64,000 bases of DNA. Source: a virus. This document shows positions 6,568 through 51,795 of this stretch, piece after piece. Made by a program: the position numbers and the translations under genes. Numbering within the stretch: the stretch's first letter is position 1; each line of letters starts with the position of its first letter. The DNA lies in the IMG/VR virus record IMGVR_UViG_3300037047_000121. The stretch is one strand, 5' to 3'. Below the pieces are notes generated by a model, which was not told where the DNA came from, did not search any database, and saw nothing but the letters and a program-made list of their open reading frames with translations.

Positions 6568-6577
6568 GGATCAAAGG

Positions 6578-8053: not shown

Positions 8054-8084
8054 CCCCTCTGATCGAGTGTTTCGATCAGAGGGG
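8054..8084 (+). terminator. perfect 13-bp inverted repeat hairpin (CCCCTCTGATCGA-GTGTT-TCGATCAGAGGGG) followed by CTTT
   Basis: Seen directly in the sequence between the gene ending at 7995 and the ATG at 8091. Could be a terminator or an operator palindrome. Confidence 0.4.
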
Positions 8085-8090
8085 CTTTCA

Positions 8091-9810: not shown

Positions 9811-9851
9811 CCCCGTTCGGAGTAGATCTCAGGGTAGCAAGCGGAGGTGTC

Positions 9852-14836: not shown

Positions 14837-15255
14837 CCACATGGGAGGATGCACCAAAGGACATGCAGGAGTTCGTGATGAATGAACTCTATCAGCGTGT
14901 CCGGTTCTACAGTCGTGAGGCACGAGCCGCGAAGGACGACGGCCTCCTGCACCTTCAGGACCGGATGATGAAGGCTTTTCAGGCCACTCGGACGGCGATC
15001 TCCACCTTGGGATATCCACAGGTATACTGCTGGGAATTACCAGCCCAGGACTCCACGGAACTGCCCAAATGGAGTGATGTTAACGATTTGTCTCGTGACG
15101 TCCTCTATCATGACATGGAAAGCGTCTGGGACGAGCTACAGGGTCAGTCCGACAAAGCAGTCCGTAGGGGACGTAGTCTCACTGCTGTACGGTTGCGTGA
15201 CGTTTCCGAGGTCCTGAAAAATGCCATCAGGCATCTCCAAGCACACGAGGGCTAG
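14833..15255 (+). CDS. hypothetical protein
   Basis: ATG 14833 (GGAATGA overlap) within track ORF 14812..15255. Confidence 0.45.
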   Translation: MTTWEDAPKDMQEFVMNELYQRVRFYSREARAAKDDGLLHLQDRMMKAFQATRTAISTLGYPQVYCWELPAQDSTELPKWSDVNDLSRDVLYHDMESVWDELQGQSDKAVRRGRSLTAVRLRDVSEVLKNAIRHLQAHEG

Positions 15256-15256
15256 C

Positions 15257-16090
15257 ATGCAGATTTTGACTCTGGGACATGGGGGCGGCGTTCCTGTTCC
15301 CAATCTGGGGAACACCAACTTCGCCCTGATCATCGGTCGGCACCAACCGGGATTGACGACGGAGGAGATCCTCCAGCGGCACAAATTCTGGCTGCTCGAC
15401 TGTGGGCCGGAAACCATCCGCCTGCTGGCTGAAACGGACTCTTTCAAAAATCTGGTGGGGGTCATCATCACCCACGTCCACGCGGATCACTCGGGGGGTC
15501 TGGCCAGCCTCGTGTGGCGGATGCGTTTCGTGGAGAAACGCAAGTTCCATCTGATTTTCTGCTCTGACCTTGCTCCTCTGCTTGAGGCACAAACGATCGA
15601 GCTTCAGTACCTGAACCCGGCACAGGAAAAAGCCTGGGCTGATGAGCTTGTTGCGCATCACAACCTGTGGAACTTTACGATCCCACATTTCATCCCAAGG
15701 GCAGGGGCAGGACCTCTCGGGACATATCTTGCAGGGTTCAAAGACTGGGAGGTGCTCCTGCACCCCGCGAATCACAACTGCGGAGTGTTCCCGGCTTTCA
15801 GTGTGGAATTGATACGGGAAAACCCCAAAACACACATCCTGTTCACTGGGGACACGGCGTTTCCATCGGATGTCTGGCACCAGAGTCTCTATTTGACATA
15901 CCACGACGTTCAGACATATAATTTAGGGGACGGCTTCGAAGTACATTGTCCGTACCAGAAAATAGTCAAAACTATCCCTCGGGAGCATCGGTCAAAAGTA
16001 CTGCTGTGTCATACGGCGAAACCCAAAAATGCCGATGCCGACGGGTTCCGTTGGGCGCACAAAAACCACCTAGAGGTTATCTCAGACTGA
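15257..16090 (+). CDS. metallo-beta-lactamase-fold hydrolase
   Basis: ITHVHADHSGG (HxHxDH motif); ATG 15257 within track ORF 15221..16090. Confidence 0.75.
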   Translation: MQILTLGHGGGVPVPNLGNTNFALIIGRHQPGLTTEEILQRHKFWLLDCGPETIRLLAETDSFKNLVGVIITHVHADHSGGLASLVWRMRFVEKRKFHLIFCSDLAPLLEAQTIELQYLNPAQEKAWADELVAHHNLWNFTIPHFIPRAGAGPLGTYLAGFKDWEVLLHPANHNCGVFPAFSVELIRENPKTHILFTGDTAFPSDVWHQSLYLTYHDVQTYNLGDGFEVHCPYQKIVKTIPREHRSKVLLCHTAKPKNADADGFRWAHKNHLEVISD

Positions 16091-16100
16091 GGAGGTTCCT

Positions 16101-16424
16101 ATGACGGTAGAAGAATTCCAGGTAGAGGTACTCCAGTTTTTCCCGACACTTAAATGGCAGTTCCGGCAAGCAGGGGAGGATCTTTTTGCGGAATCGGAAT
16201 GGACAGTGGGGTTCTCCGTTCAGGGACGTGCAACAACCGTTTTCCGTCATGAGCAGGTTAAATGGGCTGTGACCGTTCTAACCCAGGAGTATGATCCTCG
16301 GGGCTCGGGGTATCTGGTGACGGGGACTCTTCACGGGGAGGGTACAACTTTGCGGTTGGCTTGGCTGGATTTTAACACTACCAAAACGAGGATGGACGGA
16401 TTCCTTCTCCCCCTTGGGGTCTGA
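16101..16424 (+). CDS. hypothetical protein
   Basis: ORF track; RBS GAGGAGG. Confidence 0.5.
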   Translation: MTVEEFQVEVLQFFPTLKWQFRQAGEDLFAESEWTVGFSVQGRATTVFRHEQVKWAVTVLTQEYDPRGSGYLVTGTLHGEGTTLRLAWLDFNTTKTRMDGFLLPLGV

Positions 16425-16427
16425 GAG

Positions 16428-16628
16428 ATGTCTGATCTCTGTCACCAGTGTGCCCTCTCTTTTCTTGGGAAAGACACTCAAGATCTGGCGGGGTTCACTT
16501 CACCAGAAGCATGGTCGGATGGAAAAGCCGCCATCGTAATCTGTGACGGTTGCGGGGCCATCCAGGTTGACCCAGATGGCAAGTGCGTCTCCAAAGACTG
16601 TCTCTATGAGCATGGGTTGGATGACTAG
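16428..16628 (+). CDS. small Cys-rich protein
   Basis: ORF track; CHQC...CDGC...C...C pattern. Confidence 0.4.
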   Translation: MSDLCHQCALSFLGKDTQDLAGFTSPEAWSDGKAAIVICDGCGAIQVDPDGKCVSKDCLYEHGLDD

Positions 16629-16869
16629 CAAACTATGGCCCGAGGGGCGAAGGTTTGATCCTCGGGAGGATCCTCCCGCAGGAATGATCACCTATTGCTG
16701 TACCCGATGTGGACATGAGTTTCATGCCTACCCTGAAGAAGCCATCCTCCCGTGTCAGAAATTCAAGATCCAGGCTCGGGAGACAGGGCCCGGTTGGGAC
16801 TACAAGTACTGCAAAGGACGACACATGCGGGCTGTGGTTAACCTAGATGAGCGTGAGCCTGACGGTTGA
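16621..16869 (+). CDS. small zinc-ribbon protein
   Basis: CCTRCGH...CQKF...C; part of track ORF 16543..16869. Confidence 0.4.
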   Translation: MTSKLWPEGRRFDPREDPPAGMITYCCTRCGHEFHAYPEEAILPCQKFKIQARETGPGWDYKYCKGRHMRAVVNLDEREPDG

Positions 16870-17421
16870 CTGACCCATGACGGGATCGTAAACCCCCCGG
16901 ATGTCACAACTTTTCTCGGGCCACCCACGAAGAAACATCCCCAGTAGACGGTCAGCTTCTTGTTGGGTTCTGTGTGTGGGGATCAGGATCACGATTGTGT
17001 TTGACTCGATGGCGATGGGGTAGAAACCAGACCGCCAGAGCCATTTCAGATACGGTTCCATGTCGGGGCGGGACGTGCTCAGTCCTTGGATCCCTTTCTC
17101 ATAGGGACGGAGGCTGTTCTCTGGGAGTCCGAAAGCAGAGTCCGGGACTGTGACTTCGGTTCCAAGTTTCGTGGCCCATGTCCCCCAATGAGGCTGTACC
17201 GCAACCGTTCGGGGCGCCCCCCGGGCACTCCACAAGTTGGTTAGCGTTTGCTGTTCCTCTGCCTGCTCCTCGGGGGTAAGACGAGCCCACAGGATCCGTT
17301 CTTGGGCGATGAGATGATGATCCTGTTCCAGGTTCCACGGCAATCCAGTAGGGAGTGACCGACCTACAAGCAACATTTTAGCTAGGTCACGGTGCCGTTC
17401 CAGGTCTGTGGTAGGGGTCAT
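16843..17421 (-). CDS. hypothetical protein (minus-strand island)
   Basis: ORF track; co-directional with 17424..17708. Confidence 0.5.
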   Translation of the reverse strand: MTPTTDLERHRDLAKMLLVGRSLPTGLPWNLEQDHHLIAQERILWARLTPEEQAEEQQTLTNLWSARGAPRTVAVQPHWGTWATKLGTEVTVPDSAFGLPENSLRPYEKGIQGLSTSRPDMEPYLKWLWRSGFYPIAIESNTIVILIPTHRTQQEADRLLGMFLRGWPEKSCDIRGVYDPVMGQSTVRLTLI

Positions 17422-25249: not shown

Positions 25250-25277
25250 GGGATCATTACCTCCGCCCGCCGAGTAG
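25250..25277 (+). promoter_or_regulatory. GGGATCAT-N14-GAGTAG promoter-like motif
   Basis: Motif copy; downstream ATG 25318. Confidence 0.45.
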
Positions 25278-25317: not shown

Positions 25318-25857
25318 ATGGCCAAAATCAAAAACCCCTGGAAAGATGGTCGTGACGCCGACGTCATGGACGAACGGTGCGTCGGGCGTCCCTGTCTCCA
25401 CGTCGGGGAGCACAAGGGTACCTTCGTCCAGGGTCGGGGCTACACGTCGTACTTCAAAGACCCGAAACTTGTTTGTATGCATCGGCATCTCCATGGGTGT
25501 CCACAGCCGATCCCTGACGCTGAGCCCGAGAGGATCCGTTGCTGCCTGAATCCGGATTTCCCAGCGAAGGGCAAGGCCCGGAAACAGCGCTGCCGTTCAT
25601 GCGGGGCATGGGCAGAGGGCTGGGTACTGGAGATCCGCCGGGGTTTACCCGTCTTGCCGCATGTCGAGTGCAAGCATCGGGATGTGCTGACGGAATACGA
25701 CGACCTGTTCCGCAAAAGCATTGTCCGATGCCGAAACTGCGGGCTGCGGTGGTACCACGTGCCCAAGCCGATGGAGCCTGGGCGGACGTTCAAAGAGATG
25801 CTAGACGAGTGGTCTGCCCGGATCCACGCTGTTTTGCGGGGGGACAACGGGGAATGA
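25318..25857 (+). CDS. Cys-rich zinc-finger protein immediately upstream of CRISPR leader 1
   Basis: ORF track; RCRSCGAW and RCRNCGLRW CxxC pairs; RBS GGAGGAG. Confidence 0.55.
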   Translation: MAKIKNPWKDGRDADVMDERCVGRPCLHVGEHKGTFVQGRGYTSYFKDPKLVCMHRHLHGCPQPIPDAEPERIRCCLNPDFPAKGKARKQRCRSCGAWAEGWVLEIRRGLPVLPHVECKHRDVLTEYDDLFRKSIVRCRNCGLRWYHVPKPMEPGRTFKEMLDEWSARIHAVLRGDNGE

Positions 25858-26049
25858 TGCGAGCAGTTCAGTGGTGCCGAAAACCCCAGAGCCGCTCGCA
25901 GAGGGTAAAGTTCTTTGAAAACCCGGACGTTAGACGAGATCGGACTCACCTGAGACCTCGAAAATGGGCACACAGCCAGTGTGAGTCGGCTGGACTGCTC
26001 GAAGTAGGGGTGCTAAGGTGTTGAAATCAGTGGGCGCCTCGATGGTGCC
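25858..26049 (+). promoter_or_regulatory. CRISPR array 1 leader (homologous to array 2 leader)
   Basis: Shares GCGAGC..GCCG.AAAACCCC..CCGCTCGC hairpin-like segment, GTTCTTTGA and CTCGAAAATGGG blocks with 33005..33203. Confidence 0.45.
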
Positions 26050-26603
26050 CTTACAATCCCTGCTGAGCCTCTAAGGTTTGGCAACAGACTCGGACTGGGT
26101 CTCATGCTCACTGAGCGCCACCCTTACAATCCCTGCTGAGCCTCTAAGGTTTGGCAACTGCAAATCCCGGCCGCGAAATCGCGCGCGGGGATCCGGGACG
26201 CTTACAATCCCTGCTGAGCCTCTAAGGTTTGGCAACGAGGCATCCTGCGTGCCCCAGAGCGCCGTGCCGTCACCTTACAATCCCTGCTGAACCTATAAGG
26301 TTTGGCAACGTATGCGCGCTAGGCGGATAGTCAATCTGCTTTCCGTCCTGACAATCCCTGCTGAACCTATAAGGTTTGGCAACAGGCAGTACGAGAAGCG
26401 GTACGCGAAGTGGTGGCCGTCTTACAATCCCTGAAAAAACCTCTAAGGTTTAGCAACACCTGGGGCAGGATGCGCTCGGCCATCTGCTGTCCGACTTACA
26501 ATCCCTGAAGAACCTCTAAGGTTTGGCAACTGGGAGGACGGCCGCCGTGTCCGCTTGCTGCGAAACGCTTACCATCCCTGCCGAACCCAGGGGGTTTGGC
26601 AAA
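26050..26603 (+). CRISPR. CRISPR array 1: 8 repeats, consensus CTTACAATCCCTGCTGAGCCTCTAAGGTTTGGCAAC (36 bp), spacers 36-37 bp
   Basis: Repeats at about 26050, 26123, 26201, 26274, 26348, 26421, 26495, 26568; the last four are progressively degenerate (likely leader-distal end). Confidence 0.9.
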
Positions 26604-26654
26604 GTGCCCGGCTGACCCGCCAGAGGATCCGCGGAACGACGATCCCTTACCCGT

Positions 26655-26690
26655 CCCCAGCTAAATCGCTGGGGTCTTCAGATTTTTCTT
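26655..26690 (+). terminator. hairpin CCCCAGC-TAAATC-GCTGGGG followed by TCTTCAGATTTTTCTT
   Basis: Stem-loop plus T-rich tract directly after the last repeat; candidate terminator for the pre-crRNA. Confidence 0.4.
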
Positions 26691-26718
26691 GACCCCAGCG
26701 GTTTGTCCGCTGTATCCT
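26689..26718 (+). promoter_or_regulatory. sigma70-like candidate promoter TTGACC-N18-TATCCT for the cas operon
   Basis: Seen in sequence about 45 nt upstream of cas6 ATG; the fragment ACAATCCCTG of the repeat recurs just before the cas6 RBS. Confidence 0.3.
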
Positions 26719-26762
26719 ACCCCTCGACTAAGTGGTACAACAATCCCTGTGGAGAGGTTCCA

Positions 26763-27344
26763 ATGCGAAGTTTCGATTTCCCACTCAGCGGGGTGATTCC
26801 CCAGGATCATGGCTACTACCTGTTCGCCGGGCTCTGCTCCCTGTTGCCCGAGTTGCATGGGCGACGGGGGTTCCAGGTCGCTCCCGTCCGGGGTACCCGG
26901 CGGCGGGATGGGAATCTCCTGCTGGATCACAAGTCGATCCTCAACGTCCGGGGGATTACCGCAGAGGAAGCTCTGCGGATCCAGCACACGGCTTTCGAGA
27001 TCCCGACGGGAACTGTCCTCATCGGAGCAGCCTCCATCCGTGAGCATCGGGGAGGTTCGGTCCTGGCCTCCCGTCAGGTGGTGCTTCGCGGCATCCTCGA
27101 CAAGGAAACCTTCGAGAAGGCTCTCCTGGAGGCACTTCCCTCGGGGGTCGAAAGCTCCGTCGGCCGGGAGCACGTCACGATTCTGCCTGAGCGCAGCGGC
27201 AAGCCCCGTCAGGTGATGCGGGGCTGGTCCGTACGTCTTTCGGGACTGACCGAAGAGCAGTCCCTCGACATCCAGAGCCGGGGGATCGGCTGGGAGCGTC
27301 AGATGGGCTGCGGCGTGTTCTACAGCCCCCGGTACACACGATGA
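26763..27344 (+). CDS. cas6: Cas6 endoribonuclease (Cas6e-like)
   Basis: ATG 26763 after GGAGAGG. The C-terminal glycine-rich loop GIGWERQMGCG (GhGxxxxxGhG) resembles the GIGPAKSMGCG loop of CasE. About 194 aa. Lies next to a CRISPR array. Confidence 0.7.
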   Translation: MRSFDFPLSGVIPQDHGYYLFAGLCSLLPELHGRRGFQVAPVRGTRRRDGNLLLDHKSILNVRGITAEEALRIQHTAFEIPTGTVLIGAASIREHRGGSVLASRQVVLRGILDKETFEKALLEALPSGVESSVGREHVTILPERSGKPRQVMRGWSVRLSGLTEEQSLDIQSRGIGWERQMGCGVFYSPRYTR

Positions 27345-29662
27345 TTTTCTACGCCAAAGGCAAAGAGCGGAGGAACGGACGGGAGTTCTACCCCCGGGGT
27401 TTCACGCTGGAAGGACACACACGAGAGTGTGCCGAAATGGCACTGTTCCTGCTGACGAAGGTTCCGTTCGGGCGTCTCCTTCACCAGAAAATGGCACTTC
27501 AGATCCCGTACGAGGATTTCGTCCGTGTCTGCCTGCTGGCAGTGATCCTGCACGACATCGGCAAATCCGGCCCGGAGTTCTTTGGCATGATCGAGTCTCA
27601 GATCCTGGGGCTGGACCGAAGGAAGCAGAACTACCGACATGAGATCCTCTCCGCCATCATCCTTTTCCGTTTGTGGAAGTGGCTTGTCAAGGCAGCAGGA
27701 AACAAAAGATATGCCAAGTACGTGTTGTCCGCTGTCCGAGGGCACCACATCAAAACGGAAAAGGAACTGAACGACTCTTCCGAGAAAATACGGGAATGGC
27801 GTGCTGTCGACGTCATCCAGATCTACAATGATATCTTGGCTCAGTACGGGTTTCCACACATCACGGATGCCCCCTGGAAAAACAACGCGGTAAAACTTTC
27901 CTCCCGACAGGTTGCTCTGGCCAATCGTATTTTCCGGGAGGACGAGCATTTCAGCGAAGATCAAATGGCGGAAACGCCGGAGTCACTCGCTGTCAAATTC
28001 GTACTGGTGCTCTCGGACACGTTGGGGTCGCTCTCCTGGAAAAGCCCTGAACAGCAGCCCGGGTTCAACGACACGATCAAGGATTTCGTGCGACAGATCT
28101 ATGCCCCACGAAACATCGACTACAAGTCCCGCATCCAGGGGTGGGATACGATCCAGCACACATTGCGGGATTTTCAGAAGGACATCCAGACCGTGGAGGG
28201 GGATGCCATCCTGCAAGCATTCTGCGGGGGAGGAAAAACGGCAGCGGTACTTTTGTGGGCATCAAGGTGTCCCCAGATTCCGCTTGTCATCACGACTCCC
28301 ACTACGGGAACAAGTTCCCAGCTTTTCCAGGACTACGGCCGGATCGATCAGGACTTCAATCGGCACTCCCGTGCAAGTGTGGACTCCCTGATCCGGTGGC
28401 TGGCAAAACAGAACACAAACGTCCCTGACTTTCTGAACCCGTACAATGAAGCGAAGGAGGTGGGGGAAAAAGAGACCCCGGAGAAAGCGTGGGAAAAGGA
28501 AGAGCAAGAGGCTGCGGAAGAGTCTCTCGCGGTGGCGGACACGTTCGCGTCTTGTCTCAAAGACGTCACGTTTGCCACGGTGGATCAGGTGCTGGGGGTC
28601 ATGAGCTACTCCCGTAAATCGATCCTCTGGCTGCTCTACCTCGTAATGGCGCAGATGGCTTTCGACGAGTTCCACGCCTATGACGAGGAACTGACCCGCT
28701 GGCATCAGCAATTTCTGCGGTTTTTCCCGGGAATCCGCACTCTGAATCTGAGTGCCACGATTGCGGAACAGCAGCGCCGACGGGTACTGGATGTTCGACC
28801 TCACGCCCAGTTCATAACCACCAAGGAGTCGGACGGAGACAAACCGAGGTACCAGCTTCACCTTCTGGGCAGTGAACAGGAAGCCCTCACCCATTTCCGG
28901 GATGCCCGCAAGGTACTCTGGATTTCCAACAAGGTGGCTGACTGCCAGCGAGTGGCAGCGTTGTTTGACGACGCCTTGTGCTACCATGCTCGGTTCCGAT
29001 ACTACGACCGAGTGGCCATCCACGCAGAGATGGTGGCAGCATTCCGAGACAAGCAGGAACTCCGGGAAATCCGGGCTGTTACCACCCAGGTTGCGGAGAT
29101 GTCTTTGGACATTTCCGCCATGCTTGGGATCTTCGCGCTGTGTCCGTTTGTCTCATTGATCCAGCGACTCGGCCGAATCAACCGGATGCTGGAATACGGC
29201 GTGGCGGATGTTTACATCTACCGCCCGGAACGTCCGTCCCCTTACGTCATGGTACGAACGGACAAAGCGGTTGAGGAGGTCTTCCGTTCGTGGGAGGACG
29301 CTATCCGTCCGCTGCTCGGTCGCCCCGTTTCTCAGCGGGAACTGATGGAGCACGCGGCGTCCCTCCCCGCGGGAGTGCCCCCGGATCTGAACGTGTATCA
29401 ACCGATGATCGCAACAGCCCGAAGATCGCTGCGGGACGGGGGTACCTACAGCATCGTGTTGCAGCAGGATTGGGAGAAAAACCCCAAGAGATTCGAGGAC
29501 TCCCGAATTGTGAGTGCCTACGAGATTCCGACCAATGAGTACGATCTGGAGGAAGCTCTGAAGGCCAAACGGGAAGGACGGGAAGTTCACCACCGGCTGG
29601 TACTGCCCCGTGAATATGATGCGCGTCTGGGGCTTTTTCCTAAAAAGGGGATCATCCGCTGA
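27341..29662 (+). CDS. cas3: Cas3 HD nuclease-helicase
   Basis: HD domain (GHTRE, ILHDIGK, YRHEI). Helicase motifs are Walker A CGGGKTAA, DExH DEFH, SAT (LSATIAE) and motif VI QRLGRINR. ATGA overlap with cas6. Confidence 0.9.
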   Translation: MIFYAKGKERRNGREFYPRGFTLEGHTRECAEMALFLLTKVPFGRLLHQKMALQIPYEDFVRVCLLAVILHDIGKSGPEFFGMIESQILGLDRRKQNYRHEILSAIILFRLWKWLVKAAGNKRYAKYVLSAVRGHHIKTEKELNDSSEKIREWRAVDVIQIYNDILAQYGFPHITDAPWKNNAVKLSSRQVALANRIFREDEHFSEDQMAETPESLAVKFVLVLSDTLGSLSWKSPEQQPGFNDTIKDFVRQIYAPRNIDYKSRIQGWDTIQHTLRDFQKDIQTVEGDAILQAFCGGGKTAAVLLWASRCPQIPLVITTPTTGTSSQLFQDYGRIDQDFNRHSRASVDSLIRWLAKQNTNVPDFLNPYNEAKEVGEKETPEKAWEKEEQEAAEESLAVADTFASCLKDVTFATVDQVLGVMSYSRKSILWLLYLVMAQMAFDEFHAYDEELTRWHQQFLRFFPGIRTLNLSATIAEQQRRRVLDVRPHAQFITTKESDGDKPRYQLHLLGSEQEALTHFRDARKVLWISNKVADCQRVAALFDDALCYHARFRYYDRVAIHAEMVAAFRDKQELREIRAVTTQVAEMSLDISAMLGIFALCPFVSLIQRLGRINRMLEYGVADVYIYRPERPSPYVMVRTDKAVEEVFRSWEDAIRPLLGRPVSQRELMEHAASLPAGVPPDLNVYQPMIATARRSLRDGGTYSIVLQQDWEKNPKRFEDSRIVSAYEIPTNEYDLEEALKAKREGREVHHRLVLPREYDARLGLFPKKGIIR

Positions 29663-29675
29663 CCTACCTGAGTAG
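29648..29675 (+). promoter_or_regulatory. GGGATCAT-N14-GAGTAG promoter-like motif inside the 3' end of cas3
   Basis: Motif copy immediately upstream of the large-subunit gene. Confidence 0.4.
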
Positions 29676-29701
29676 GTAGCCCGATGTGTTTTGGAGGATT
29701 G

Positions 29702-31465
29702 ATGGAAACCTGGGTCTACGATCTGAACACGGAATTCGACCCGGTCATTCGAGCCGGGATTCACGGGCTGGCTCTGGTGCTCGGGCATGCGGAAGGCAAC
29801 CCGCTTTTCCCGGCAGTGCACCAGGAGCCCGGGGTTCTGGAGTGGGAACTGACGGACACCACGCTCACCGTCCGTTTCCGGGACGAGGAGCCGCTCAACA
29901 GGATGATGCAGGGCATGTTCGGAACATGCCCCAATGGAGCCCTTCTGCATCCCGCCCGTGAAGTGACCCCCGGAAAGAACGGTTACTATGCCACAGCGCA
30001 GTGCCACCGTGGCATCATCCAGGTTTTCTCCGGGGGTATGAGTTCCACCAAGCGGACCAAATCTCTGGGTGAAGCCTCCCTGCCTGATGCCCTGAAAAGC
30101 TACAGGGCAAACATAACGGTCGGGAAGGCTTCCGGAGTAGTTCGGAAACGTGAGGGGAAAGAGCCCCTTCGCTACGACATCGAGATCACCCCGCACTACC
30201 CGCTGCCTCGTATCGAGGTCGACGGGAAAAGCGAACTGGTCATCAAGAACCACTTCGCTTTCCAGCAGAAGGGCAAGAAGAAGGTTTCTGAGGACAAGGG
30301 TGGCATGACGGGAGGGTTTCACCCGGCATACAACGAATGGAACAAGCGAAGCATCGATGCACCGAACCGCATCCGTTTCGCAGTGGCGTTCAGCCCTCTC
30401 TCCTATGTCTTTACCAGATGGCGCAAGGGTGCCGTTCAGGGGAAGGCAGGAGACAAGCAGAAGGGATGTGTCGGAGTCAGCCTCGATTTCGAGACATTTT
30501 CCCGGGCTTGGGGTTTCCACCGTCGGTACGGACTGAGTATGCACCCCAACCGCACGGAAGAGGTTTTTCAGAACCTCTTCCGCGTGGATGCAGACTACCC
30601 GGTGGCTGCGGTGGCACTCCTGACGCTACTGGAGGCTGATGTCGGGCGTTCCTATCACGTAGTGCAGTGTCCGGATAACGGCAAACCGTCTGCGCATGAG
30701 ATCCCCTTCGAGGGCGTGGACGGTTTGCTGCTCAAGTTCCGACAGGCTCTGCGTCAGGAAATGGTCGAAGGCGGAGTTGAGTTCCTACACCGCATCAAGA
30801 GCCCCTGGCTCTTCCCCCAGGGCAAGGCTCAGCGAGAGTCTCTGTTTGACGTACTCTGGAACAACGTCGGTTTCGGGCAGCCCTGGTACCGCGGACTTTT
30901 CGTCCGCAAGGGCATGCCCAGCAGCAATCTGCGTCGCGTGATGAGGGGCATCGTGAACATTTTCGGTACGGAACAGCACAAGCGGCTTCATCAGGAACTG
31001 CGGAACATGCGGAACCTTCTGGTTCACGCCAAGGCGGAGACCCGGGCACGTCGAGGGGACGCGCCCCCGATTCAGAGGGACTGGGAGCAGGTGGATCAGG
31101 ACATGGTCTCCGTCCACTTCCGCACGGCCCACGTTTTCGGAGACGTGATGGGGGCGCTGGCTCACGCCAACGACCAGATCATCCGCCGCGGAAAGCGCCC
31201 GCCCCTGTCTGCGGACTCCGTCATGCTCGTTCGCGAAATGGCGCAGAGCGATCCGCGCGGAACGGCGGACCTGCTGTCCATCCTGTTTGCGACCGAGACC
31301 CCGGCCGACATGGAACGCCGCGTCGCCAACAGGGCAAAGAAGAACGGTGCGGGGGTGCCCACCCCCGTGCCCACGGAAAACACCGAGGAGCCGAGCGATT
31401 TCGGTTTCTCGGAACTGGATCCGAACGTCATGGAAGAAGAGGAAGAGGAAGAGATCAATGCGTGA
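29702..31465 (+). CDS. cas8: Cas8-like large subunit (possibly with C-terminal Cas11-like region)
   Basis: 587-593 aa ORF between cas3 and cas7 in the Cascade position. ATG 29702 has a GGAGGA RBS; the alternative ATG is at 29684 (track). No separate small-subunit gene is present. Confidence 0.55.
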   Translation: METWVYDLNTEFDPVIRAGIHGLALVLGHAEGNPLFPAVHQEPGVLEWELTDTTLTVRFRDEEPLNRMMQGMFGTCPNGALLHPAREVTPGKNGYYATAQCHRGIIQVFSGGMSSTKRTKSLGEASLPDALKSYRANITVGKASGVVRKREGKEPLRYDIEITPHYPLPRIEVDGKSELVIKNHFAFQQKGKKKVSEDKGGMTGGFHPAYNEWNKRSIDAPNRIRFAVAFSPLSYVFTRWRKGAVQGKAGDKQKGCVGVSLDFETFSRAWGFHRRYGLSMHPNRTEEVFQNLFRVDADYPVAAVALLTLLEADVGRSYHVVQCPDNGKPSAHEIPFEGVDGLLLKFRQALRQEMVEGGVEFLHRIKSPWLFPQGKAQRESLFDVLWNNVGFGQPWYRGLFVRKGMPSSNLRRVMRGIVNIFGTEQHKRLHQELRNMRNLLVHAKAETRARRGDAPPIQRDWEQVDQDMVSVHFRTAHVFGDVMGALAHANDQIIRRGKRPPLSADSVMLVREMAQSDPRGTADLLSILFATETPADMERRVANRAKKNGAGVPTPVPTENTEEPSDFGFSELDPNVMEEEEEEEINA

Positions 31466-32348
31466 CAACTACCTGTCGATCGTCATCGTGACCAAGCCGT
31501 TCCTGGCCGCCAACGCGCGTGGGGAACTGGTCGGGGGGCACACCTCCGGACTCCAGTTGATCACGGTCGGGAACAAGGTCTACACCGTGATCAACGGCTA
31601 CTCCCTGGCCTACGCTCTCCGGCAGGCGCTGGAGGACCAGGGGGCCACGGTGTGGCGCCGGGTCGATCGGGACACCGTGACCGGGTTCGACTACAACGGC
31701 AGCCCCGTCCCCCTGTCCTACCCGGGCGACCGTTTCGAGTTCCACGACACCGCCCTGCGCGGTTTCATGGACACCCAGGGTGAGGCGGGCAAGAAATGCT
31801 CCCTGATGGAGATCTCCTGCGCGGTCTCGACCGAGCCGTACCACGGCGACGAGGGGTTCTCGATCGGGCACAAGAACAAGATCGCGGCTGCCACGACCAA
31901 CGCCCCGGTCACGGCCCCGGACACGGCCAACACCGCAGACGACACCGACCGTAGCGCGAAGAACCCGTTCCAGTACCAGCGCAGCTACACCCGGACGACC
32001 TTCGTCCTGACCTTCGACCTGCGGGCGCTCTCCTGTGACGTCGCACGGGAGTCGATCCACATGGTGACGACGGCGCTGGCGGAACTCCAGGTGGGCGGCA
32101 GTCAGGCGGCCAACAAGTCCACGCTGATCGCGGAGTGGGTGGCCTGGAACACCCACCCCACGGCGGGAACGGCGGGTCTGGCCTTCTCGGTCGCGGACAC
32201 GAAGGGCTGGCCGCTGGACGCCCCCCTGACCGAGGCCCAGATCCGGGCCGGGCTGAATCGGGCGAAGCGGGGGTACCGGCTGAGCCAGAACGTCGACGAT
32301 CTCGTGGACGACCTGCTGACCCGCGGGATCGCCAAGGAGATGGTGTGA
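31458..32348 (+). CDS. cas7: Cas7 backbone subunit
   Basis: ATG 31458 overlapping the cas8 stop. N-terminus LSIVIVTKPFLAANARGEL and GYSLAYALRQ resemble Cas7e (LISHSPSCLNRDD...SSQSLKRAVR). About 297 aa. Confidence 0.7.
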   Translation: MRDNYLSIVIVTKPFLAANARGELVGGHTSGLQLITVGNKVYTVINGYSLAYALRQALEDQGATVWRRVDRDTVTGFDYNGSPVPLSYPGDRFEFHDTALRGFMDTQGEAGKKCSLMEISCAVSTEPYHGDEGFSIGHKNKIAAATTNAPVTAPDTANTADDTDRSAKNPFQYQRSYTRTTFVLTFDLRALSCDVARESIHMVTTALAELQVGGSQAANKSTLIAEWVAWNTHPTAGTAGLAFSVADTKGWPLDAPLTEAQIRAGLNRAKRGYRLSQNVDDLVDDLLTRGIAKEMV

Positions 32349-33004
32349 TGGAGCCGATCGTGTCCCTCGGAGTCTGGGTGGCCTCGGGACACTACCCGGC
32401 ACCTGGGTCGAAGCAGTTGATGGCACAGGTGCCGAGTTTCCCGGTCGCTCCCCCGTCGACGGTCGTGGGGTTTCTGGGCAGTCTCTGCGGGCAGTTCCCG
32501 AAGGACATGCACAAGGCGGTGGGTGCGTCGGAGTTTGCCTATGGCTGGCTCCGACGACCCGCTGGTCGGGGCATCGTCATGTTCAAGGACCATGTGAACG
32601 CCTCGTTCCAGGGCCCCTTGAAAGAGGCGATGGCCCGGCTCACCAAAAAGAAGAACGGCGAGTCGACCCGGCCGGTCTTGCGGGAAATCTTCTACGACAT
32701 GGACTACCGGATCGTCGTGCGGGGCCCCTACGCGGAGCGCGTTCAGCAGGCACTGGAGCACGACGAGCGCCGGGGGATTCTCTACCTGGGTGGTTCTACC
32801 GACATCGTTCACACGGTGGACGCCGAGTGCGACGGCTCCAGCGAGTGGGTCGTCCCGGTGGATGGGCTGATCGGGTTCCGCCTTCCCGTGAACACGGGAC
32901 GTGGGGCATCGACGATCAGCGCGCAGTACCGGGTGTTCCGGTTCAACCCCGCAACGCCAGAGATCCCGGACAAGGCATGGATGTCCCTGTCCGCTGCCTT
33001 CTAA
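32348..33004 (+). CDS. cas5: Cas5 subunit
   Basis: ATG 32348 (TGATG overlap). VPSFPVAPPSTVVGFLGSLCGQ matches the Cas5 N-terminal glycine-rich motif (PTRSGLLGLLGACLG in CasD). About 219 aa. Confidence 0.7.
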   Translation: MEPIVSLGVWVASGHYPAPGSKQLMAQVPSFPVAPPSTVVGFLGSLCGQFPKDMHKAVGASEFAYGWLRRPAGRGIVMFKDHVNASFQGPLKEAMARLTKKKNGESTRPVLREIFYDMDYRIVVRGPYAERVQQALEHDERRGILYLGGSTDIVHTVDAECDGSSEWVVPVDGLIGFRLPVNTGRGASTISAQYRVFRFNPATPEIPDKAWMSLSAAF

Positions 33005-33007
33005 CAT

Positions 33008-33059
33008 CGGGTTTGCGAGCGGTGCCATGACCCCCTAAAACCCCGTCACCGCTCGCAAA
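33008..33059 (+). terminator. 16-bp stem hairpin GGGTTTGCGAGCGGTG...CACCGCTCGCAAACCC right after cas5 stop
   Basis: Seen in sequence; part of the array 2 leader and homologous to a weaker hairpin in leader 1. Confidence 0.4.
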
Positions 33060-33060
33060 C

Positions 33061-33203
33061 CCGCAAGAGGAGGAGTTCTTTGACAATCCGAGAGCTAATG
33101 AAAACCAGAAGCAACAAAACCACCCCACTGACAGTGTGGAAACCGCCACCGCTCGAAAATGGGGTACTAACCCCCGGAAATGAGTGGGCTTTTAGAGGGT
33201 GGG
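33061..33203 (+). promoter_or_regulatory. CRISPR array 2 leader (A-rich; shares GTTCTTTGA and CTCGAAAATGGG blocks with leader 1)
   Basis: Sequence comparison of the two pre-array regions. Confidence 0.45.
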
Positions 33204-35812
33204 GTAACAATCCCTTCTGACCCCAAAAGGTTTAGCCACGAGAAGCTCGTCGAGCCGTCCGACAACCGGGTACTCGTAACAATCCCTTCTGACCCCAAAA
33301 GGTTTAGCCACAAAACCACTGTGCGGTACACCGCAGAGCAACTGCCCATGGTAACAATCCCTTCTGACCCCAAAAGGTTTAGCCACACGCAGGCGCAGGT
33401 CGAGGAGGTGATCGCAGGGCTGGTAACAATCCCTTCTGACCCCAAAAGGTTTAGCCACGGGGCAGAAGTGGTTGACCCTGGAAGACGCCGTGTGTAACAA
33501 TCCCTTCTGACCCCAAAAGGTTTAGCCACAGGGTCATCGGCACTCGCCCCCGTCGCTGCCCCGAGTGTAACAATCCCTTCTGACCCCAAAAGGTTTAGCC
33601 ACTAGATGTTGCGCAGCCGAATGTCTGACAATCCCGGGGTAACAATCCCTTCTGACCCCAAAAGGTTTAGCCACATGGTCGGTTCCGAATGGGACGTTCC
33701 GGCCGAAACCCGTAACAATCCCTTCTGACCCCAAAAGGTTTAGCCACGAGGGAGAGCCGATGGGCGCGGCCGCCAGGGAGCGCGGTAACAATCCCTTCTG
33801 ACCCCAAAAGGTTTAGCCACTGCCTGGGGGGACAACATGGCCTGGGGTGACCCGAAGTAACAATCCCTTCTGACCCCAAAAGGTTTAGCCACTGGCTACC
33901 GGCGAGTACAGATTGTCCATGGTGTCGTGTAACAATCCCTTCTGACCCCAAAAGGTTTAGCCACGCGACGCTGCGGGGCTCCCTGTCATCCGGCACGGAG
34001 GTGTAACAATCCCTTCTGACCCCAAAAGGTTTAGCCACCTCCCTCGCGGCCGCGGCATGGCTCCACGGTCGGTGGTAACAATCCCTTCTGACCCCAAAAG
34101 GTTTAGCCACCTCGACGAACTCATGGATGCCGTCGGTACCTGACCACGTTCCAATCCCTTCTGACCCTAGAGGTTTAGCCACACTATGCTGAATCGGTGC
34201 AGTGGAAGCACGCCGCGGCTGGCAACAATCCCTTCTGACCCCAAAAGGTTTAGCCACGACGGGAGGGGCAAGAGGATCCGCTACGGGTGCATCTGGTAAC
34301 AATCCCTTTTTACCTCTAACGGTTTGGCAACAGTAGCCCCGCGGGACGTGCCGGTCCCAGGCCGCCTTCGTAACAATCCCTTCTTACCTCCGATGGTTTA
34401 GCCACCCTATCAGCGGGCATGTTGCTCGCGGTGACAGTGACATAACAATCCCTTCTGACCTCTGATGGTTTAGCCACAGGCAGGCGGCGCCGCAAGCCGT
34501 CCAGTACTCCTGGTAACAATCCCTTCTGACCTCAAAAGGTTTAGCCACGAGCAGTACAGGGGCTGGGAGTGCGAGGAGGACGAGTCGTTACAATCCCTTC
34601 CGTCCTCTGATGGTTTAGCCACAACCTCCTGGCGAACCGCAGCGACCCCAAGCCGCTGGTAACAGTCCCTTCTGACCTCAAAAGGTTTGGCAACACGCAC
34701 ACCCCGTTCGCGTGCCTCCCGTTCGGCCAGTGACAAATCCCTTCTGACCCTCTAATGGTTTAGCCACCCATCGACGACCTCCACTTCGTCAGTCCCGTAG
34801 GTCTCGGAACAATCCCTTCTGACCAGCAACGGTTTAGCAACGGCCCACAGGGTGCTGGGAATTCGACTGCATTCTGGATGACAATCCCTTCTGACCTCTG
34901 ACGGTTTAGCCACCCATGTCGTTTCCCCCAGCGGCGCACCAGCGCCATGTTCGTAACAATCCCTTCTGATCCCAAAAGGTTTAGCCACTCCTTCGGGTGA
35001 TTTCGCCTTCTCCGCGGACGGTGGGTAACCGTCCCTTCTTACCTCAAATGGTTTAGCCACGTCTGCGCCTGTGTGACGCGCGCCTCGATGACGCGGTAAC
35101 AATTCCTTCTTACCTCTGAGGGTTTAGCCACGAACGTTCGGTTGATCTCCGGCGCGAGTTAGAAATCGTAGCAATCCCTTCTGACCTCTGATGGTTTAGC
35201 CACGGAATAACGGCGGCGCTGTCGGAGCACATGTCTGTGTAACAATCCCTTTTTCCCAAAGGGTTTAGCCACACCGGGTCGTTCGGTCGGTTTGTCGGTA
35301 CGTTTAACAATCCCTCTGACCATCCGAGGTTTAGCCACCCGTAGTACGGGGACACGCCTCCGGCCTTGATCTGGTAACAATCCCTTCTGACCTCTGATGG
35401 TTTAGCCACTCCTCATCCACGTACCAGACGTGCGTGGGAGGCCATAACAATCCCTTCTAGCTCATTGCGTTTAGCTACAACCACAGCCACAGCGTGCATC
35501 GGAGCACGAGACGTAATACGTCCGCAGCACTTTCCCGTCTCATCCCCAGAGGTTTGGTAACGTACCGCAAGTACTCGATCAGTGGATTTGTGCCGGGCTA
35601 CAATCCCGTTTTGCCTCAAGGTTTGGTAACGGTTCACAGACGGGTTTTACCATCCCGACTTTCCTACAAGGTTTGGCAACTGCGCGAGCCGGACCAGAAC
35701 TTGGCTCATGTCGCGAGGTTCAATCCCTGCTGACCATTTCGTGGTTTGGCAATAGTCGGGGGGTTGGAAAACCCAAGGACACAATCCCTGCTTAAACTCT
35801 AAACCAAAGGAA
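33204..35812 (+). CRISPR. CRISPR array 2: about 34 repeat units, 36-bp repeat GTAACAATCCCTTCTGACCCCAAAAGGTTTAGCCAC, spacers 36-39 bp
   Basis: About 15 near-identical units run from 33204 to about 34260. The next about 20 units carry a second sub-consensus (...CTGACCTCTGATGGTTTAGCCAC) and many point variants, some ending GTTTGGCAAC as in array 1. The final units (35530-35812) are highly degenerate. Confidence 0.9.
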
Positions 35813-35816
35813 AACC

Positions 35817-36257
35817 ATGCGCATCTGGTCCCTACACCCTTCAGTTCTCGACCGTCAGGGACTTGCCCGCTACTGGACGGAGGGCTGGCTTGCATTCCGG
35901 GTCCTCTTGGGTCAGACCAAAGGCTACCGGAATCACCCCCAGCTTGACCGTTGGCGCCGTTTCCCCAACCCACCCGCAGCCTTGGCTGCCTACCTCGCCC
36001 CCGTGTTGGCCGAGGCCCACGGGCGTGGATACGCCGTAGACGGCAAGTACGACCCCTCCGTCCTCACCATCTCCCCGGACAAGACCGTGCGGTTGGAAGT
36101 CACCGAGGGTCAGCTTGCCTTCGAGTGGCGCTGGCTTCGGGAGAAACTTCGCCGCAGCCCTACCACGTGGGCCGAAATGCCCGCGAAACCAATTCCACAC
36201 CCAATGGTTGATCTCGTGCCCGGATCCGTTGAGCCGTGGGAGCGATCTTCCCTCTGA
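35817..36257 (+). CDS. pyrimidine-dimer DNA glycosylase-like protein (tentative)
   Basis: N-terminus MRIWSLHPSVLDRQGLARYWTEGWLAFRVLLGQTKGYRNHPQLDRW resembles the MRLWSLHP.YLD...GY.NHPQL pattern of bacterial Pyr_excise-family proteins; recalled from memory. Confidence 0.4.
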   Translation: MRIWSLHPSVLDRQGLARYWTEGWLAFRVLLGQTKGYRNHPQLDRWRRFPNPPAALAAYLAPVLAEAHGRGYAVDGKYDPSVLTISPDKTVRLEVTEGQLAFEWRWLREKLRRSPTTWAEMPAKPIPHPMVDLVPGSVEPWERSSL

Positions 36258-47025: not shown

Positions 47026-47379
47026 ATGCGGCGTAACCATAACATCTGGCGGATGCGGGCTGCGTGGATGATCCGAAATCGGGGGGAGTACCGAGTGGTG
47101 TCCCGAGGATCGGACAACGGGCTCGTGATCAGGTGTTCGGGGGACTTCCCAAAAGTGACGCTCTCCCGTTCTCCAGCAGAAAACCGCACCCGCAGGTTCA
47201 TCCGCAGGGTCAACCTGATCCTGAATGGGATCGACCGGGTGACGTTCAAGGACGGCACGTCGGTCGGTTATCCCAGGGTTTTCCGGTTTCAGCCTTTGGC
47301 ATGGCGCCCCGTTCGGGGGATGACCCAGCACGCAATGACCTTTGATGTGGCCTGGGAAAGCAAGAGGTTTCCTGGATGA
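47026..47379 (+). CDS. hypothetical protein
   Basis: ORF track. Confidence 0.4.
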   Translation: MRRNHNIWRMRAAWMIRNRGEYRVVSRGSDNGLVIRCSGDFPKVTLSRSPAENRTRRFIRRVNLILNGIDRVTFKDGTSVGYPRVFRFQPLAWRPVRGMTQHAMTFDVAWESKRFPG

Positions 47380-48509
47380 GTCTGATCAAGGATACCGAGA
47401 CGACCAAGACGGCTCGGGGTGACGGATACAATTTCTGTTTCGACAAGCGGGATGGGTGGTTTGCCCGCTGCGGGACGTGCAACGCGACCCCGGAGCAGTT
47501 CCGCGAGGAGTCCGAGACCGCGGTCTGTATCCATGGGGGAGATGGAGATCCCCAGTGGTCTCCGGACGGGCCGGAACTGCTGGATTTGGAGATCAGCGTC
47601 AACGGTTGCCCGAATAACTGCAAATTTTGCTATAAGGGCAACAACAACTCGGCGCCCACGAACATGACGCTGGATACCTTCAAAGCGATCATGGATCGGA
47701 TGCCCCCGTCAGTCACACAAATTGCGTTTGGTATCACCGGGGTACAGACGAATCCCGATTTCATCCCAATGCTGATCGAGTGCCGTCGTCGGGGGGTGAT
47801 CCCCAACTTCACCTTGTCCGGTATCGACCTGACGCCCGAGCTTGCGGAGGAGATCGCCAAACACGTCGGTGCGCTGGCCGTCAGTCTCTACGAGAACGAC
47901 CTGGACACGGGGCTGAAAGCCATCCAGATGTTCAAAGACCTCGGGATGGAACAAGTAAACGTCCATCTTCTTGTCGCCACGGAGCGGATGCCGTTTATCC
48001 TTCGGCTGTTCGAGGAGTGGATTCGCGTTCCGACGAGCGTCCTGCGGCGCGTCAATGCGTTCGTCCTGCTGGGTGTCAAGCCCAAAGGGCGTGCTGCGAA
48101 AGGTAATTTCAACCCCCTCCCGATGAACATGTTTCGGGCACTGGTGGAGATGTGCCTCCGGATCGGCATCCCGATCGGGTTTGATTCCTGCTCCGCTCCG
48201 AAGTTCGAGGCTGCGGTCAAACAGATGAGAGGGCTGACGCCCGAGCAGATGGAGAGCATGCTCCGCAACAGCGAAAGCTGCGAGAGCGGCCTGTTCAGTT
48301 CCTACATTGACGTGAACGGCGTGTTCCACGTCTGCTCTTTCGCAGAGGGGGTAGACTGGACTCCCAGTATCCCAGTGCTGGATCACGAATCCTTCCTGGA
48401 GGGCATCTGGCTGCACCCGGAGGTGGTAGCATGGAGAGAGAAACTCCTGGCGACCGCCGCAGCAGATGGCTGTAGGCGTTGCCCGATCTATCAGGAGATT
48501 CACGGGTGA
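47376..48509 (+). CDS. radical SAM enzyme with C-terminal auxiliary Cys cluster (SPASM/twitch-like)
   Basis: CPNNCKFCY (Cx3Cx2C) with an about 80-aa Cys-containing N-terminal extension. The C-terminal cysteines are CESG...CSFAEG...CRRC. 377 aa. Confidence 0.85.
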   Translation: MSLIKDTETTKTARGDGYNFCFDKRDGWFARCGTCNATPEQFREESETAVCIHGGDGDPQWSPDGPELLDLEISVNGCPNNCKFCYKGNNNSAPTNMTLDTFKAIMDRMPPSVTQIAFGITGVQTNPDFIPMLIECRRRGVIPNFTLSGIDLTPELAEEIAKHVGALAVSLYENDLDTGLKAIQMFKDLGMEQVNVHLLVATERMPFILRLFEEWIRVPTSVLRRVNAFVLLGVKPKGRAAKGNFNPLPMNMFRALVEMCLRIGIPIGFDSCSAPKFEAAVKQMRGLTPEQMESMLRNSESCESGLFSSYIDVNGVFHVCSFAEGVDWTPSIPVLDHESFLEGIWLHPEVVAWREKLLATAAADGCRRCPIYQEIHG

Positions 48510-51090: not shown

Positions 51091-51795
51091 ATGGACTGGG
51101 AGTGGCTTGGGATCTGGTACAACTGGCCGTTTCTGATCCCGTTCATGTTCGCTATCATTTACATCCTCGTAATTGACTTGCTGATCGGTGGGATTGGCCA
51201 TCTTTTCGGGGGTGACACCGACGTTGATGTTTCCGCTGACCACGATGCGGATGTTTCTGTCGATCACGACGTTGACGTAGGACATGCCGATAACATTTGG
51301 GTGGCGAGCCTACACTGGATTGGTGTGGGAAAAGTCCCCGTGTTGATCCTTCTGGAGAGTTTTCTCCTCCTGTTCGGAGGCACGGGCCTGATCATCAACT
51401 GCATTTGGCACGACGTAGCACCAAAAAGCATGGGACCGCTGTCCCTCATTGTAGCCCTTCCTGTGGCCTTCATTGTTAGCGTGCCTGCGACACGGTGGCT
51501 GGCTCAGGTATTGGCTTGGCTGCTTCCCTCTGATGCCACGATTACCCGCGTAGCTGGAGGATTCACGGGTGAATGGGGCACAGTCATCTCGACGGTCACA
51601 ACCGAGTCCGGTCAAGTTTTGATTCCCGGCACGGGAACGATTCCAGATACGGTATTGAATTGCACACGGGATCCGCTCAACACAGCGGAGGATATCCCCT
51701 GTGAGACGAAAATTGTAGTGGTGGATTACCTAGCTGGTACGAACAGTTACACAGTGGCCCCTATGGACATCCCCAGGCTAGGAGGTGATGAATGA
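51091..51795 (+). CDS. NfeD-like membrane protein
   Basis: N-terminal TM helices (WPFLIPFMFAIIYILVIDLLIGGIG; VLILLESFLLLFGGTGLII) and a C-terminal beta-rich domain; directly precedes an SPFH/flotillin gene with an ATGA overlap, the canonical NfeD-SPFH operon arrangement. Confidence 0.6.
   Translation: MDWEWLGIWYNWPFLIPFMFAIIYILVIDLLIGGIGHLFGGDTDVDVSADHDADVSVDHDVDVGHADNIWVASLHWIGVGKVPVLILLESFLLLFGGTGLIINCIWHDVAPKSMGPLSLIVALPVAFIVSVPATRWLAQVLAWLLPSDATITRVAGGFTGEWGTVISTVTTESGQVLIPGTGTIPDTVLNCTRDPLNTAEDIPCETKIVVVDYLAGTNSYTVAPMDIPRLGGDE

Follow-up and report, generated by a model that had tools for sequence, protein, structure and literature searches.

Virus-borne CRISPR-Cas systems without adaptation genes are already known. 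Almost all CRISPR systems of the huge phages published in 2020 are without Cas1, Cas2 and Cas4 (Al-Shayeb et al., PMC7162821), and a sequence-only reading of the DNA considered here had rightly pointed to such phages as precedents. Phage-borne CRISPR-Cas shows viruses turning host immunity on competitors or on the host, and very few of these systems have been studied experimentally. The present locus is at positions 25858–35812 of a 64,000-nucleotide (nt) stretch of IMG/VR virus record IMGVR_UViG_3300037047_000121; the whole stretch, which has a G + C content of 58.6%, is termed the window. Five cas genes lie between two CRISPR arrays, as the sequence-only reading had noticed. The locus is related, at great distance, to the known type I-B MYXAN system, whose normal gene order it keeps, and it is probably an interference-competent, adaptation-less I-B/I-MYXAN system on a large phage or phage-like mobile element.

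The canonical I-MYXAN arrangement is annotated on a plasmid of Synechococcus elongatus UTEX 3055 (NZ_CP033063). There the Prokaryotic Genome Annotation Pipeline gives the order WYL regulator, cas6 (Cmx6), cas3, cas8a1 (Cmx1), cas7 (DevR), cas5 (Cmx5/DevS), cas1 (I-MYXAN), cas2 and an array, whose 36-nt repeat GTGTAATTACCCTTGATGCCATTAGGCGTTGATCAC has GT...CAC ends. The window order, cas6-cas3-cas8-cas7-cas5, is identical and is thus the canonical I-MYXAN order; the sequence-only reading had held that it matches no canonical layout, which is incorrect. A tblastn search of plasmids with Cas3 of the window also gave cyanobacterial plasmids as the best matches, at 27–29% identity.

Array A (26050–26603, + strand) consists of eight repeats of 36–37 nt with the consensus CTTACAATCCCTGCTGAGCCTCTAAGGTTTGGCAAC, and seven spacers of 37–42 nt. 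Its first three repeats do not differ from one another, and degeneration is strongest in the last. Next come five closely spaced genes on the + strand, and the reading frames of neighbouring cas genes overlap. The first, cas6 (26763–27344), encodes a Cmx6-type pre-CRISPR RNA (crRNA) endonuclease of 193 amino acids, and cas3 (27341–29662) a 773-amino-acid protein with a fused HD nuclease and superfamily 2 helicase. The large-subunit gene, cas8 (29702–31465), specifies 587 amino acids from an ATG at 29702 that is preceded by GGAGGA; its open reading frame opens at 29684 and comprises 593 codons. The backbone subunit is encoded by cas7 (31458–32348, 296 amino acids, best matching the DevR/Cst2 family), and cas5 (32348–33004, 218 amino acids) has a start ATG overlapping the cas7 stop codon (TGATG), with AAGGAG upstream. 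Array B (33204–35753, + strand) has 36 repeats with the consensus GTAACAATCCCTTCTGACCCCAAAAGGTTTAGCCAC and about 35 spacers; repeats 1–13 are identical, and a degenerate remnant repeat is found at about 35781–35812. The two arrays total 42 spacers, 40 of which are within 25–50 nt. Directly 3′ of array B is a + strand gene (35817–36257), assigned by reading its sequence, for a pyrimidine-dimer DNA glycosylase similar to T4 endonuclease V (Pfam Pyr_excise, 8.8e-19).

Each array is preceded by a leader, at 25858–26049 for array A and 33005–33203 for array B, both on the + strand. These leaders are homologous along about 200 nt and share the conserved blocks AAAACCCC..CCGCTCGCA, GTTCTTTGA, CAGTGTG, GCTCGAA and AGTGGGC. 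A sigma-70-like site is present ahead of cas6 (26689–26718). The position of the leaders, the direction of the cas genes, the polarity of repeat decay and the similarity to canonical repeats in the orientation of the operon together indicate that the arrays are transcribed on the + strand. Folding of the repeat RNA does not settle orientation, since it favours the + strand for array A and the − strand for array B. Searches for tRNA genes and for Rfam families, the CRISPR-DR families included, found none.

The identity of the Cas proteins was assessed by profile, profile-profile and structure searches. Profile searches support the assignments of Cas6, Cas3, Cas7 and Cas5 made by the sequence-only reading, profile-profile and structural comparison supports that of Cas8, and every motif it quoted for Cas3, Cas6, Cas7 and Cas5 is present at the expected place. 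Together the searches place all five proteins in subtype I-B in its I-MYXAN form (Cmx6, Cas3, Cmx1/DevT, DevR and DevS), for Cas7 and Cas5 by best matches that lie under the curated cut-offs, and not in subtype I-E.

Cas6 carries the loop GIGWERQMGCG at residue 174 of 193, and it had been thought closest to Cas6e. The protein matches Pfam PF09559 (5.8e-29) and passes the curated cut-off of TIGR02807, cas6_cmx6 of I-MYXAN (99.0 bits against 98.85); the Cas6e model PF08798 gives no match, and the sole sequence match in the PDB is the I-B Cas6 chain 8fcj_B (4.3e-13). Cas3 matches PADLOC Cas3b (2.3e-100) and the Pfam families Cas3_HD and Cas3-like_C_2. Its HD motifs are intact (GHTRE at residue 25, ILHDIGK at 69), as are helicase motifs I, II, III and VI (CGGGKTAA at 295, DEFH at 442, SAT at 471 and QRLGRINR at 608).

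Cas7 displays NARGEL at residue 19 and GYSLAYALRQ at residue 47. These had been read as the mark of a Cas7e-like protein, a view that the profile searches do not support: matches are to TIGR01875 (1.3e-9), PADLOC Cas7 (2.7e-11) and Cas7b (4.1e-11), and the best models are those of the DevR/Cst2 I-B Cas7 family, at 37.5 bits against a curated cut-off of 67.3. The only PDB sequence match is the I-B Cas7 chain 8h67_E (0.006). Cas5, with the motif PPSTVVGFLGSLCG at residue 35, matches PADLOC Cas5 (1.4e-8) and Cas5b (1.6e-8), and Cmx5/DevS models also at about 1e-8. It is below the curated cut-offs of these families (24.0 against 96.7 bits and 18.7 against 111.5 bits); the generic N-terminal domain TIGR02593 alone is passed (18.7 bits against 17.8). 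Its sole PDB sequence match is the I-B Cas5 chain 8fcj_A (1e-4).

Cas8 is the most divergent of the sequences at the level of profiles. The 593-residue open reading frame has no match in local Pfam, NCBIfam or PADLOC libraries and passes neither TIGR03485 nor TIGR03486, and a weak precomputed Pfam match to DevT_N is on record. A word-indexed protein search returned nothing beyond the protein itself, and no more than 53 relatives emerged when 1.84 billion cluster representatives were searched exhaustively with HMMER, the closest relative being 36% identical when the protein itself and three short or repetitive matches are left aside. An alignment of 49 members of the family was compared with canonical Cmx1 proteins by hhalign, and the two match over 444 columns with 97.6% probability and an E value of 3e-12. 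TIGR03485 is reached by only four of the 49 clade members (best E 2.8e-5); this, together with the missing NCBIfam match of the window protein, marks Cas8 as a divergent sub-family and not an equivalog. Structure prediction, which the sequence-only reading had proposed for the Cas8 and Cas11 regions, gives a confident AlphaFold model when built with an alignment (predicted local distance difference test, pLDDT, 84.8; predicted template modelling score 0.86); a single-sequence AlphaFold2 model was useless (pLDDT 38). In the PDB, Foldseek matches the model significantly only to Cas8 chains, which come from two structures of type I-B Cascade, and the sole PDB sequence match of the Cas8 profile is again an I-B Cascade subunit. 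Cas8 is a large subunit homologous to Cas8a1/Cmx1/DevT.

The model also predicts a helical Cas11-like fold at the Cas8 C-terminus (30914–31465, + strand). Neither a separate cas11 gene nor a cse2 open reading frame is present. The sequence-only reading was correct that the gene is missing, but this is no anomaly: in subtypes I-B, I-C and I-D, translation that starts inside the large-subunit gene yields Cas11 (10.1101/2020.04.18.045682; PMC11899642), so that the lack of a separate cas11 is normal. In-frame start codons M411, M420, V424 and M442 (593-residue numbering) precede the Cas11-like domain, and Cas11 may be made separately from one of them.

An affinity with type I-E was considered and rejected, as the Cas6 match is to PF09559 and not to PF08798, a cse2 open reading frame is lacking, and the repeats are 36 nt and not about 29 nt. 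Also rejected was a CRISPR-associated transposon (CAST) of the I-B2 type. The system keeps an intact Cas3, and the Pfam scan reveals no transposase, TnsC or TniQ family among the 127 non-cas open reading frames of the window.

These 127 frames were called across the window with alternative frames included, and each was scanned with PADLOC (E ≤ 0.01) and Pfam (E ≤ 1e-5). No Cas1, Cas2 or Cas4 was detected among them, as the sequence-only reading had stated for the 64 kb, and apart from the five cas genes nothing cas-like is found within 25–30 kb of the locus. Spacers were nevertheless acquired. In array B the distance of a repeat from the consensus increases with its index (Spearman rho 0.86, p 2e-11), divergence growing from the 13 identical repeats toward the 3′ end, and array A shows the same polarity. 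Such polarity points to repeated acquisition at the leader end and not to uniform decay. It follows that spacer uptake went on for a long time, and that the machinery responsible is not encoded beside the locus. Since adaptation genes are missing from the window, new spacers would derive from Cas1-Cas2 acting in trans, from a module outside the 64 kb, or from a time before such a module was lost. Type IV-A3 plasmid systems provide an example of spacer acquisition in trans (PMC11656645).

The locus is not an isolated case. At least four other distinct metagenomic elements, on contigs of up to 375 kb, carry the same cassette and the same repeat family; they were found via contigs encoding relatives of Cas8 and Cas3. 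The five genes in the same order occur on L005 (6.3 kb), a contig that stops just past cas5. The cassette with a downstream array is found on L010 (53 kb), on L012, L013 and L015 (22, 6 and 19 kb, L013 being cut inside cas7) and on L014 (102 kb and 375 kb). L012 and L015 are 100% identical and represent the same sequence, and the flanking sequence of a further contig, P0055, stops at cas3. No adaptation genes are present within ±10 kb of the cassettes of L010, L012 or L014. The repeats of L012 (CTCACAATCCCTGAGAGACCGTGAAGGAATGGCAAC), L010 (CTTCAACCTTCTGATCTCCTTTAAGGGGATTGGCAAC) and L014 (CTTACATCCCTTCTAACCTTGCGAAAGGTTGGAAAC, ending in ...GGAAAC) are of one family with those of the window, and Cas proteins of the window and these loci are 25–42% identical (36% for Cas7 of L005). 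The flanks of L010, L012 and L014 are densely packed with genes that have few or no Pfam matches; those of L014 include TnpB, sigma-like proteins, a DNA methyltransferase and a T7-type endonuclease I (Phage_endo_I). The L012 array (15214–16892) displays several truncated spacers of 24–27 nt, and spacer 8 equals spacer 17, which suggests internal recombination or decay.

A sister branch differs in its other modules. L006 (6967–14759), L007 and L008 (3687–12411) encode Cas3, Cas8, Cas7 and Cas5 of the same clade, 28–34% identical to those of the window, and add Cas6e (PF08798), a full Cas1 (301 amino acids), Cas2 (111 amino acids) and I-E-type repeats (GTTATCCCCGCGCGAGCGGGGTTGATCG). Judged by its genes, the branch resembles a modular chimera in which I-B-like effector genes are joined to an I-E-like processing and adaptation module. 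Some non-cas genes are shared as well: the window gene at 6542–7303 is 57% identical to a gene of L006/L007, that at 16843–17421 is 45% identical to another gene of L006/L007, and that at 9847–11304 is 30% identical to a gene beside cas6 in L014. The carriers are thus distantly related.

The context of the locus points to a mobile element as its carrier, which is most probably a large phage. The type I effector and Cas3 locus lies in a phage-like context, as had been remarked, and one rich in ORFans: no more than 24 Pfam families are matched by the 127 open reading frames, ORFans make up most of the flanks, and 12 PHROG families are matched in the window. By Pfam scan, no housekeeping, plasmid-maintenance, partition, replication, conjugation, integrase, Tn7 or Mu families occur among the 127 frames. 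A radical-SAM protein (47376–48509, + strand; phrog_7293, 5.5e-60) has counterparts with 36–37% identity in 172 phage records; most of these are Klebsiella, Enterobacter, Cronobacter and Citrobacter phages about 175 kb long (131–178 kb among the matches listed). The 485-amino-acid protein of 9847–11304 has homologues in Caulobacter phages of about 223 kb and in Vibrio phages of 79 kb.

The cassette also appears to be tied to the element by a repeated motif, GGATCAT-N12-14-GAGTAG, which is far in excess of chance, with 18 copies in the window, all on the + strand, and none expected (100 shuffles). Sites include 2182, 5594, 9541, 11308, 25251, 29649, 43216 and 62089, and the copies examined are just upstream of a ribosome-binding site and start codon. 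Judged from such placement, the motif is probably an element-specific promoter or processing signal; it is missing from the related loci. The copy at 25251–25277 (+ strand, N13 spacing) is upstream of an open reading frame at 25318–25857 and of array A, and it possibly starts a transcription unit of that frame, array A, cas6 and cas3. Another copy (29649–29675, + strand) is between the end of cas3 and the start of cas8. These two copies indicate that the cassette is wired into the element's own regulation, which argues against very recent capture.

A mechanism can be proposed by homology to I-B systems that have been characterised. Both arrays would be transcribed on the + strand from the homologous leaders of about 200 nt and/or from the promoter-like motifs of the element, and the Cmx6-type Cas6 would cut every 36-nt repeat. 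The crRNA would assemble with Cas8, Cas7 multimers, Cas5, Cas6 and probably an internally translated Cas11 to form Cascade. Formation of an R-loop at a DNA target flanked by a protospacer-adjacent motif would then recruit Cas3, which is predicted to nick and processively degrade the target by means of its HD site (H25, HD 71–72) and helicase motifs I, II, III and VI. The cassette may be pictured as the canonical I-MYXAN operon minus cas(4)1-cas2, plus a second array upstream. As a likely role, the system would be turned during infection against competing mobile elements or host DNA.

Several observations weigh against this reading. The search of spacers that the sequence-only reading had advised found no target: no protospacer was detected in the window, in loci L001–L015, in GenBank phages or in PLSDB plasmids, and two leader-proximal spacers compared with IMG/VR have no match there. 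In array B the majority of distal repeats have degenerated and may have ceased to be processed, and Cas7, Cas5 and Cas8 are all under their curated family cut-offs. As to the carrier, no virion hallmark gene (capsid, terminase, portal or tail) is found with PHROG in the 64-kb window; phage carriage is for this reason inferred only, and there is room for a non-viral element. GenBank phages give no match to the locus by megablast, nor to Cas3 and Cas8 by tblastn, and IMG/VR has no relative detectable with Cas8 (as a single protein or as peptide patterns) or with the repeat. Finally, a contig of 137,889 bp is recorded as encoding an identical Cas3, so that at least 74 kb of the source contig lies outside the window and could hold cas1, cas2 and cas4.

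The best-placed alternative is an ordinary bacterial chromosomal or plasmid I-B/I-MYXAN system whose adaptation module is outside the 64-kb window or elsewhere in the replicon. A source contig of at least 138 kb with 64 kb of it in the window, the lack of virion genes there, the occurrence of canonical I-MYXAN systems on cyanobacterial plasmids and a polarised repeat decay implying that acquisition took place are all consistent with it. However, canonical cas1-cas2 directly follow cas5, and it is an array that does so here and in L010, L012 and L014; nothing cas-like is found within ±10 kb of those loci or within 25–30 kb in the window. No housekeeping, partition, replication or conjugation family is present among the 127 frames, and the repeat family is absent from 185,579 species-representative genomes. 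An ordinary resident system appears quite unlikely.

It is also conceivable that the locus is a decaying, non-functional remnant of a captured host system, with fossil arrays and drifting Cas proteins. The missing adaptation module, the degenerate state of about two thirds of the array B repeats, the truncated 24–27-nt spacers and one duplicated spacer of the L012 array, and the failure to find a spacer target all fit such a history. Against it, the five open reading frames are intact with coupled starts and stops, the catalytic motifs of Cas3 are preserved, the 13 leader-proximal repeats are identical, and a copy of the promoter-like motif of the element is present inside the operon. Moreover, a cassette kept across elements at 25–42% protein identity implies long purifying selection, and decay is accordingly a very unlikely explanation. 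Repurposing as a non-destructive system, either a DevTRS-like Cascade transcriptional regulator or an I-B CAST-like transposition guide, is less credible still and scarcely to be expected: the large subunit is of the DevT/Cmx1 family, DevTRS represses its own operon in Myxococcus (PMC6061681) and the best structural match of Cas8 is Cas8 of an I-B CAST, but the operon encodes a full-length Cas3 with intact HD nuclease and helicase, a protein no longer present in the majority of type I CASTs (PMC11656645), the 127 frames include no transposition family of Tn7 or Mu, and none of the roughly 42 distinct spacers matches the window itself.

An adaptation-less interference system on a large phage or phage-like element therefore stands as the preferred reading, and the composition of the spacers gives a hint of what it is aimed at. 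Spacers of the window have a G + C content of 65%, against 58.6% for the element. The same bias is found in every clade member (the window, L010, L012, L014 and L015), with spacers at 60–65% and carriers at 50–58%; in L014 the values are 62% and 50%. Spacers thus seem to be drawn from DNA richer in G + C than the carriers, such as host DNA or host-like elements. Strict and broad repeat patterns gave no match in 185,579 GTDB species-representative genomes and none in IMG/VR, and the one metagenome contig matched is the same sequence as L012. With the repeat family absent from these genomes and from IMG/VR, no host with matching arrays can be named.

A bolder extension can be offered as a tentative and unlikely proposal: a phage-restricted I-B-like lineage may still acquire leader-end spacers by borrowing a host's adaptation machinery, the host's own arrays having a different repeat, and may aim its G + C-richer spacers at the host chromosome or at elements resident in the host. 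The lineage would be modular, the sister branch having swapped in Cas6e, I-E-type repeats and an I-E-like Cas1-Cas2. If true, a lineage of this type would represent an offensive, self-renewing phage weapon.

The remaining genes of the window comprise several recognizable families. Running off the start of the window is a − strand gene (2–1912), weakly like a phage DNA helicase, that contains an intein with a LAGLIDADG homing endonuclease (2.1e-30). A eukaryotic-type topoisomerase IB is encoded at 8067–9539 (+ strand; Pfam Topoisom_I, 2.8e-14) and has no tblastn match in 50,697 GenBank phage records. At 15221–16090 (+ strand) there is a metallo-β-lactamase (MBL)-fold hydrolase of phrog_392 with a sub-threshold match to the anti-Pycsar protein Apyc1 (4.3e-5, 23.6 bits against a cut-off of 50); on this resemblance in sequence, a possible role is that of a counter-defence nuclease breaking down cyclic-nucleotide signals. 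A YqiJ/NfeD-like membrane protein is followed by a 712-amino-acid SPFH/flotillin protein at 51091–53930 (+ strand), and the same pair is found on Logan contig L009. A cREC_REC "cyclic-phosphate processing receiver" domain occurs in one open reading frame (2.8e-26). A nucleoside 2-deoxyribosyltransferase-like domain (8.5e-16) is found in a second frame, probably that at 6542–7303, as its 57%-identical homologue in L007 faintly matches the same family. GNAT acetyltransferases and a flavin adenine dinucleotide (FAD) oxidoreductase are also present.

With respect to known systems, the locus represents a new lineage of a known phenomenon and not a new kind of system: a divergent, apparently phage-associated lineage in which Cas3 is kept and adaptation is lost. 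The sequence-only reading had suggested an undescribed variant. At the sequence level the lineage is indeed poorly described, and the searched text of the 2025 classification makes no mention of a phage-borne I-B variant, its I-B2 being the Tn7-associated form (PMC12669027); the argument for novelty from gene order and I-E-like proteins, on the other hand, was wrong. The gene order is not an oddity, and the picture of the type I mechanism is unchanged. What the locus does define is a small clade barely visible to current profiles, consisting of I-B-type cassettes that encode a genuine Cas3, have an array of unusual length and bear clear traces of polarised spacer uptake in the past, and that have no adaptation genes nearby. 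It allows one to ask how adaptation-less arrays of mobile elements are replenished and what they target.

Type I-E is similar in being a class 1 Cascade system with Cas3, and the sister lineage L006–L008 has Cas6e, I-E-type repeats and Cas1-Cas2, but Cas7 and Cas5 of the window match I-B and not I-E families. The I-B2 CAST represented by PmcCAST (PDB 8fcj) differs in that the window has an intact Cas3 and is without transposition genes; type I CASTs lie within Tn7-like transposons, and in most of them Cas3 has been lost (PMC11656645). The type I-F system of Vibrio phage ICP1 is likewise carried by a mobile element, relies on Cas3-type interference and is presumed to be used offensively, but it belongs to another subtype and has its own adaptation module (PMC11656645), whereas the window locus is I-B-like and has no adaptation genes in 64 kb.

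Likeness is closest to I-MYXAN systems, as represented by NZ_CP033063, the dev/CRISPR2-3 loci of Myxococcus xanthus and the Synechocystis I-B Cascade (PDB 8h67 and 8ip0). The same five genes are in the same order; Cas6 is of the Cmx6 type, Cas7 has its best match in the DevR type and Cas8 is of the Cmx1/DevT type with a Cas11-like C-terminus and no separate cas11; and the repeats are 36 nt with GT...CAC ends, as in the S. elongatus array, with spacers of about 36 nt. The differences are that in the window cas5 is not followed by cas(4)1-cas2 but directly by array B, that an extra array with a homologous leader is present upstream of cas6, and that the upstream WYL regulator is missing. The window proteins are about 26–28% identical to those of S. 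elongatus, over partial lengths only, Cas8 is invisible to TIGR03485, and the carrier is a phage-like element and not a bacterial replicon.

In this last respect the locus resembles the huge-phage systems (PMC7162821), which also combine a large carrier rich in ORFans with effectors and arrays but no Cas1, Cas2 or Cas4, have an effector nuclease with conserved catalytic motifs, and have been proposed to attack competing phages or the host. The type I case described there is a variant of I-C without Cas6, in which another helicase replaces Cas3, whereas the window encodes Cas6 together with a genuine Cas3; array B, at 36 repeats, is far longer than the six-repeat median of the phage arrays in that study (PMC7162821), and phage carriage is inferred here. 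The CRISPR repertoire of phages would in this way be extended to the I-B/I-MYXAN branch.

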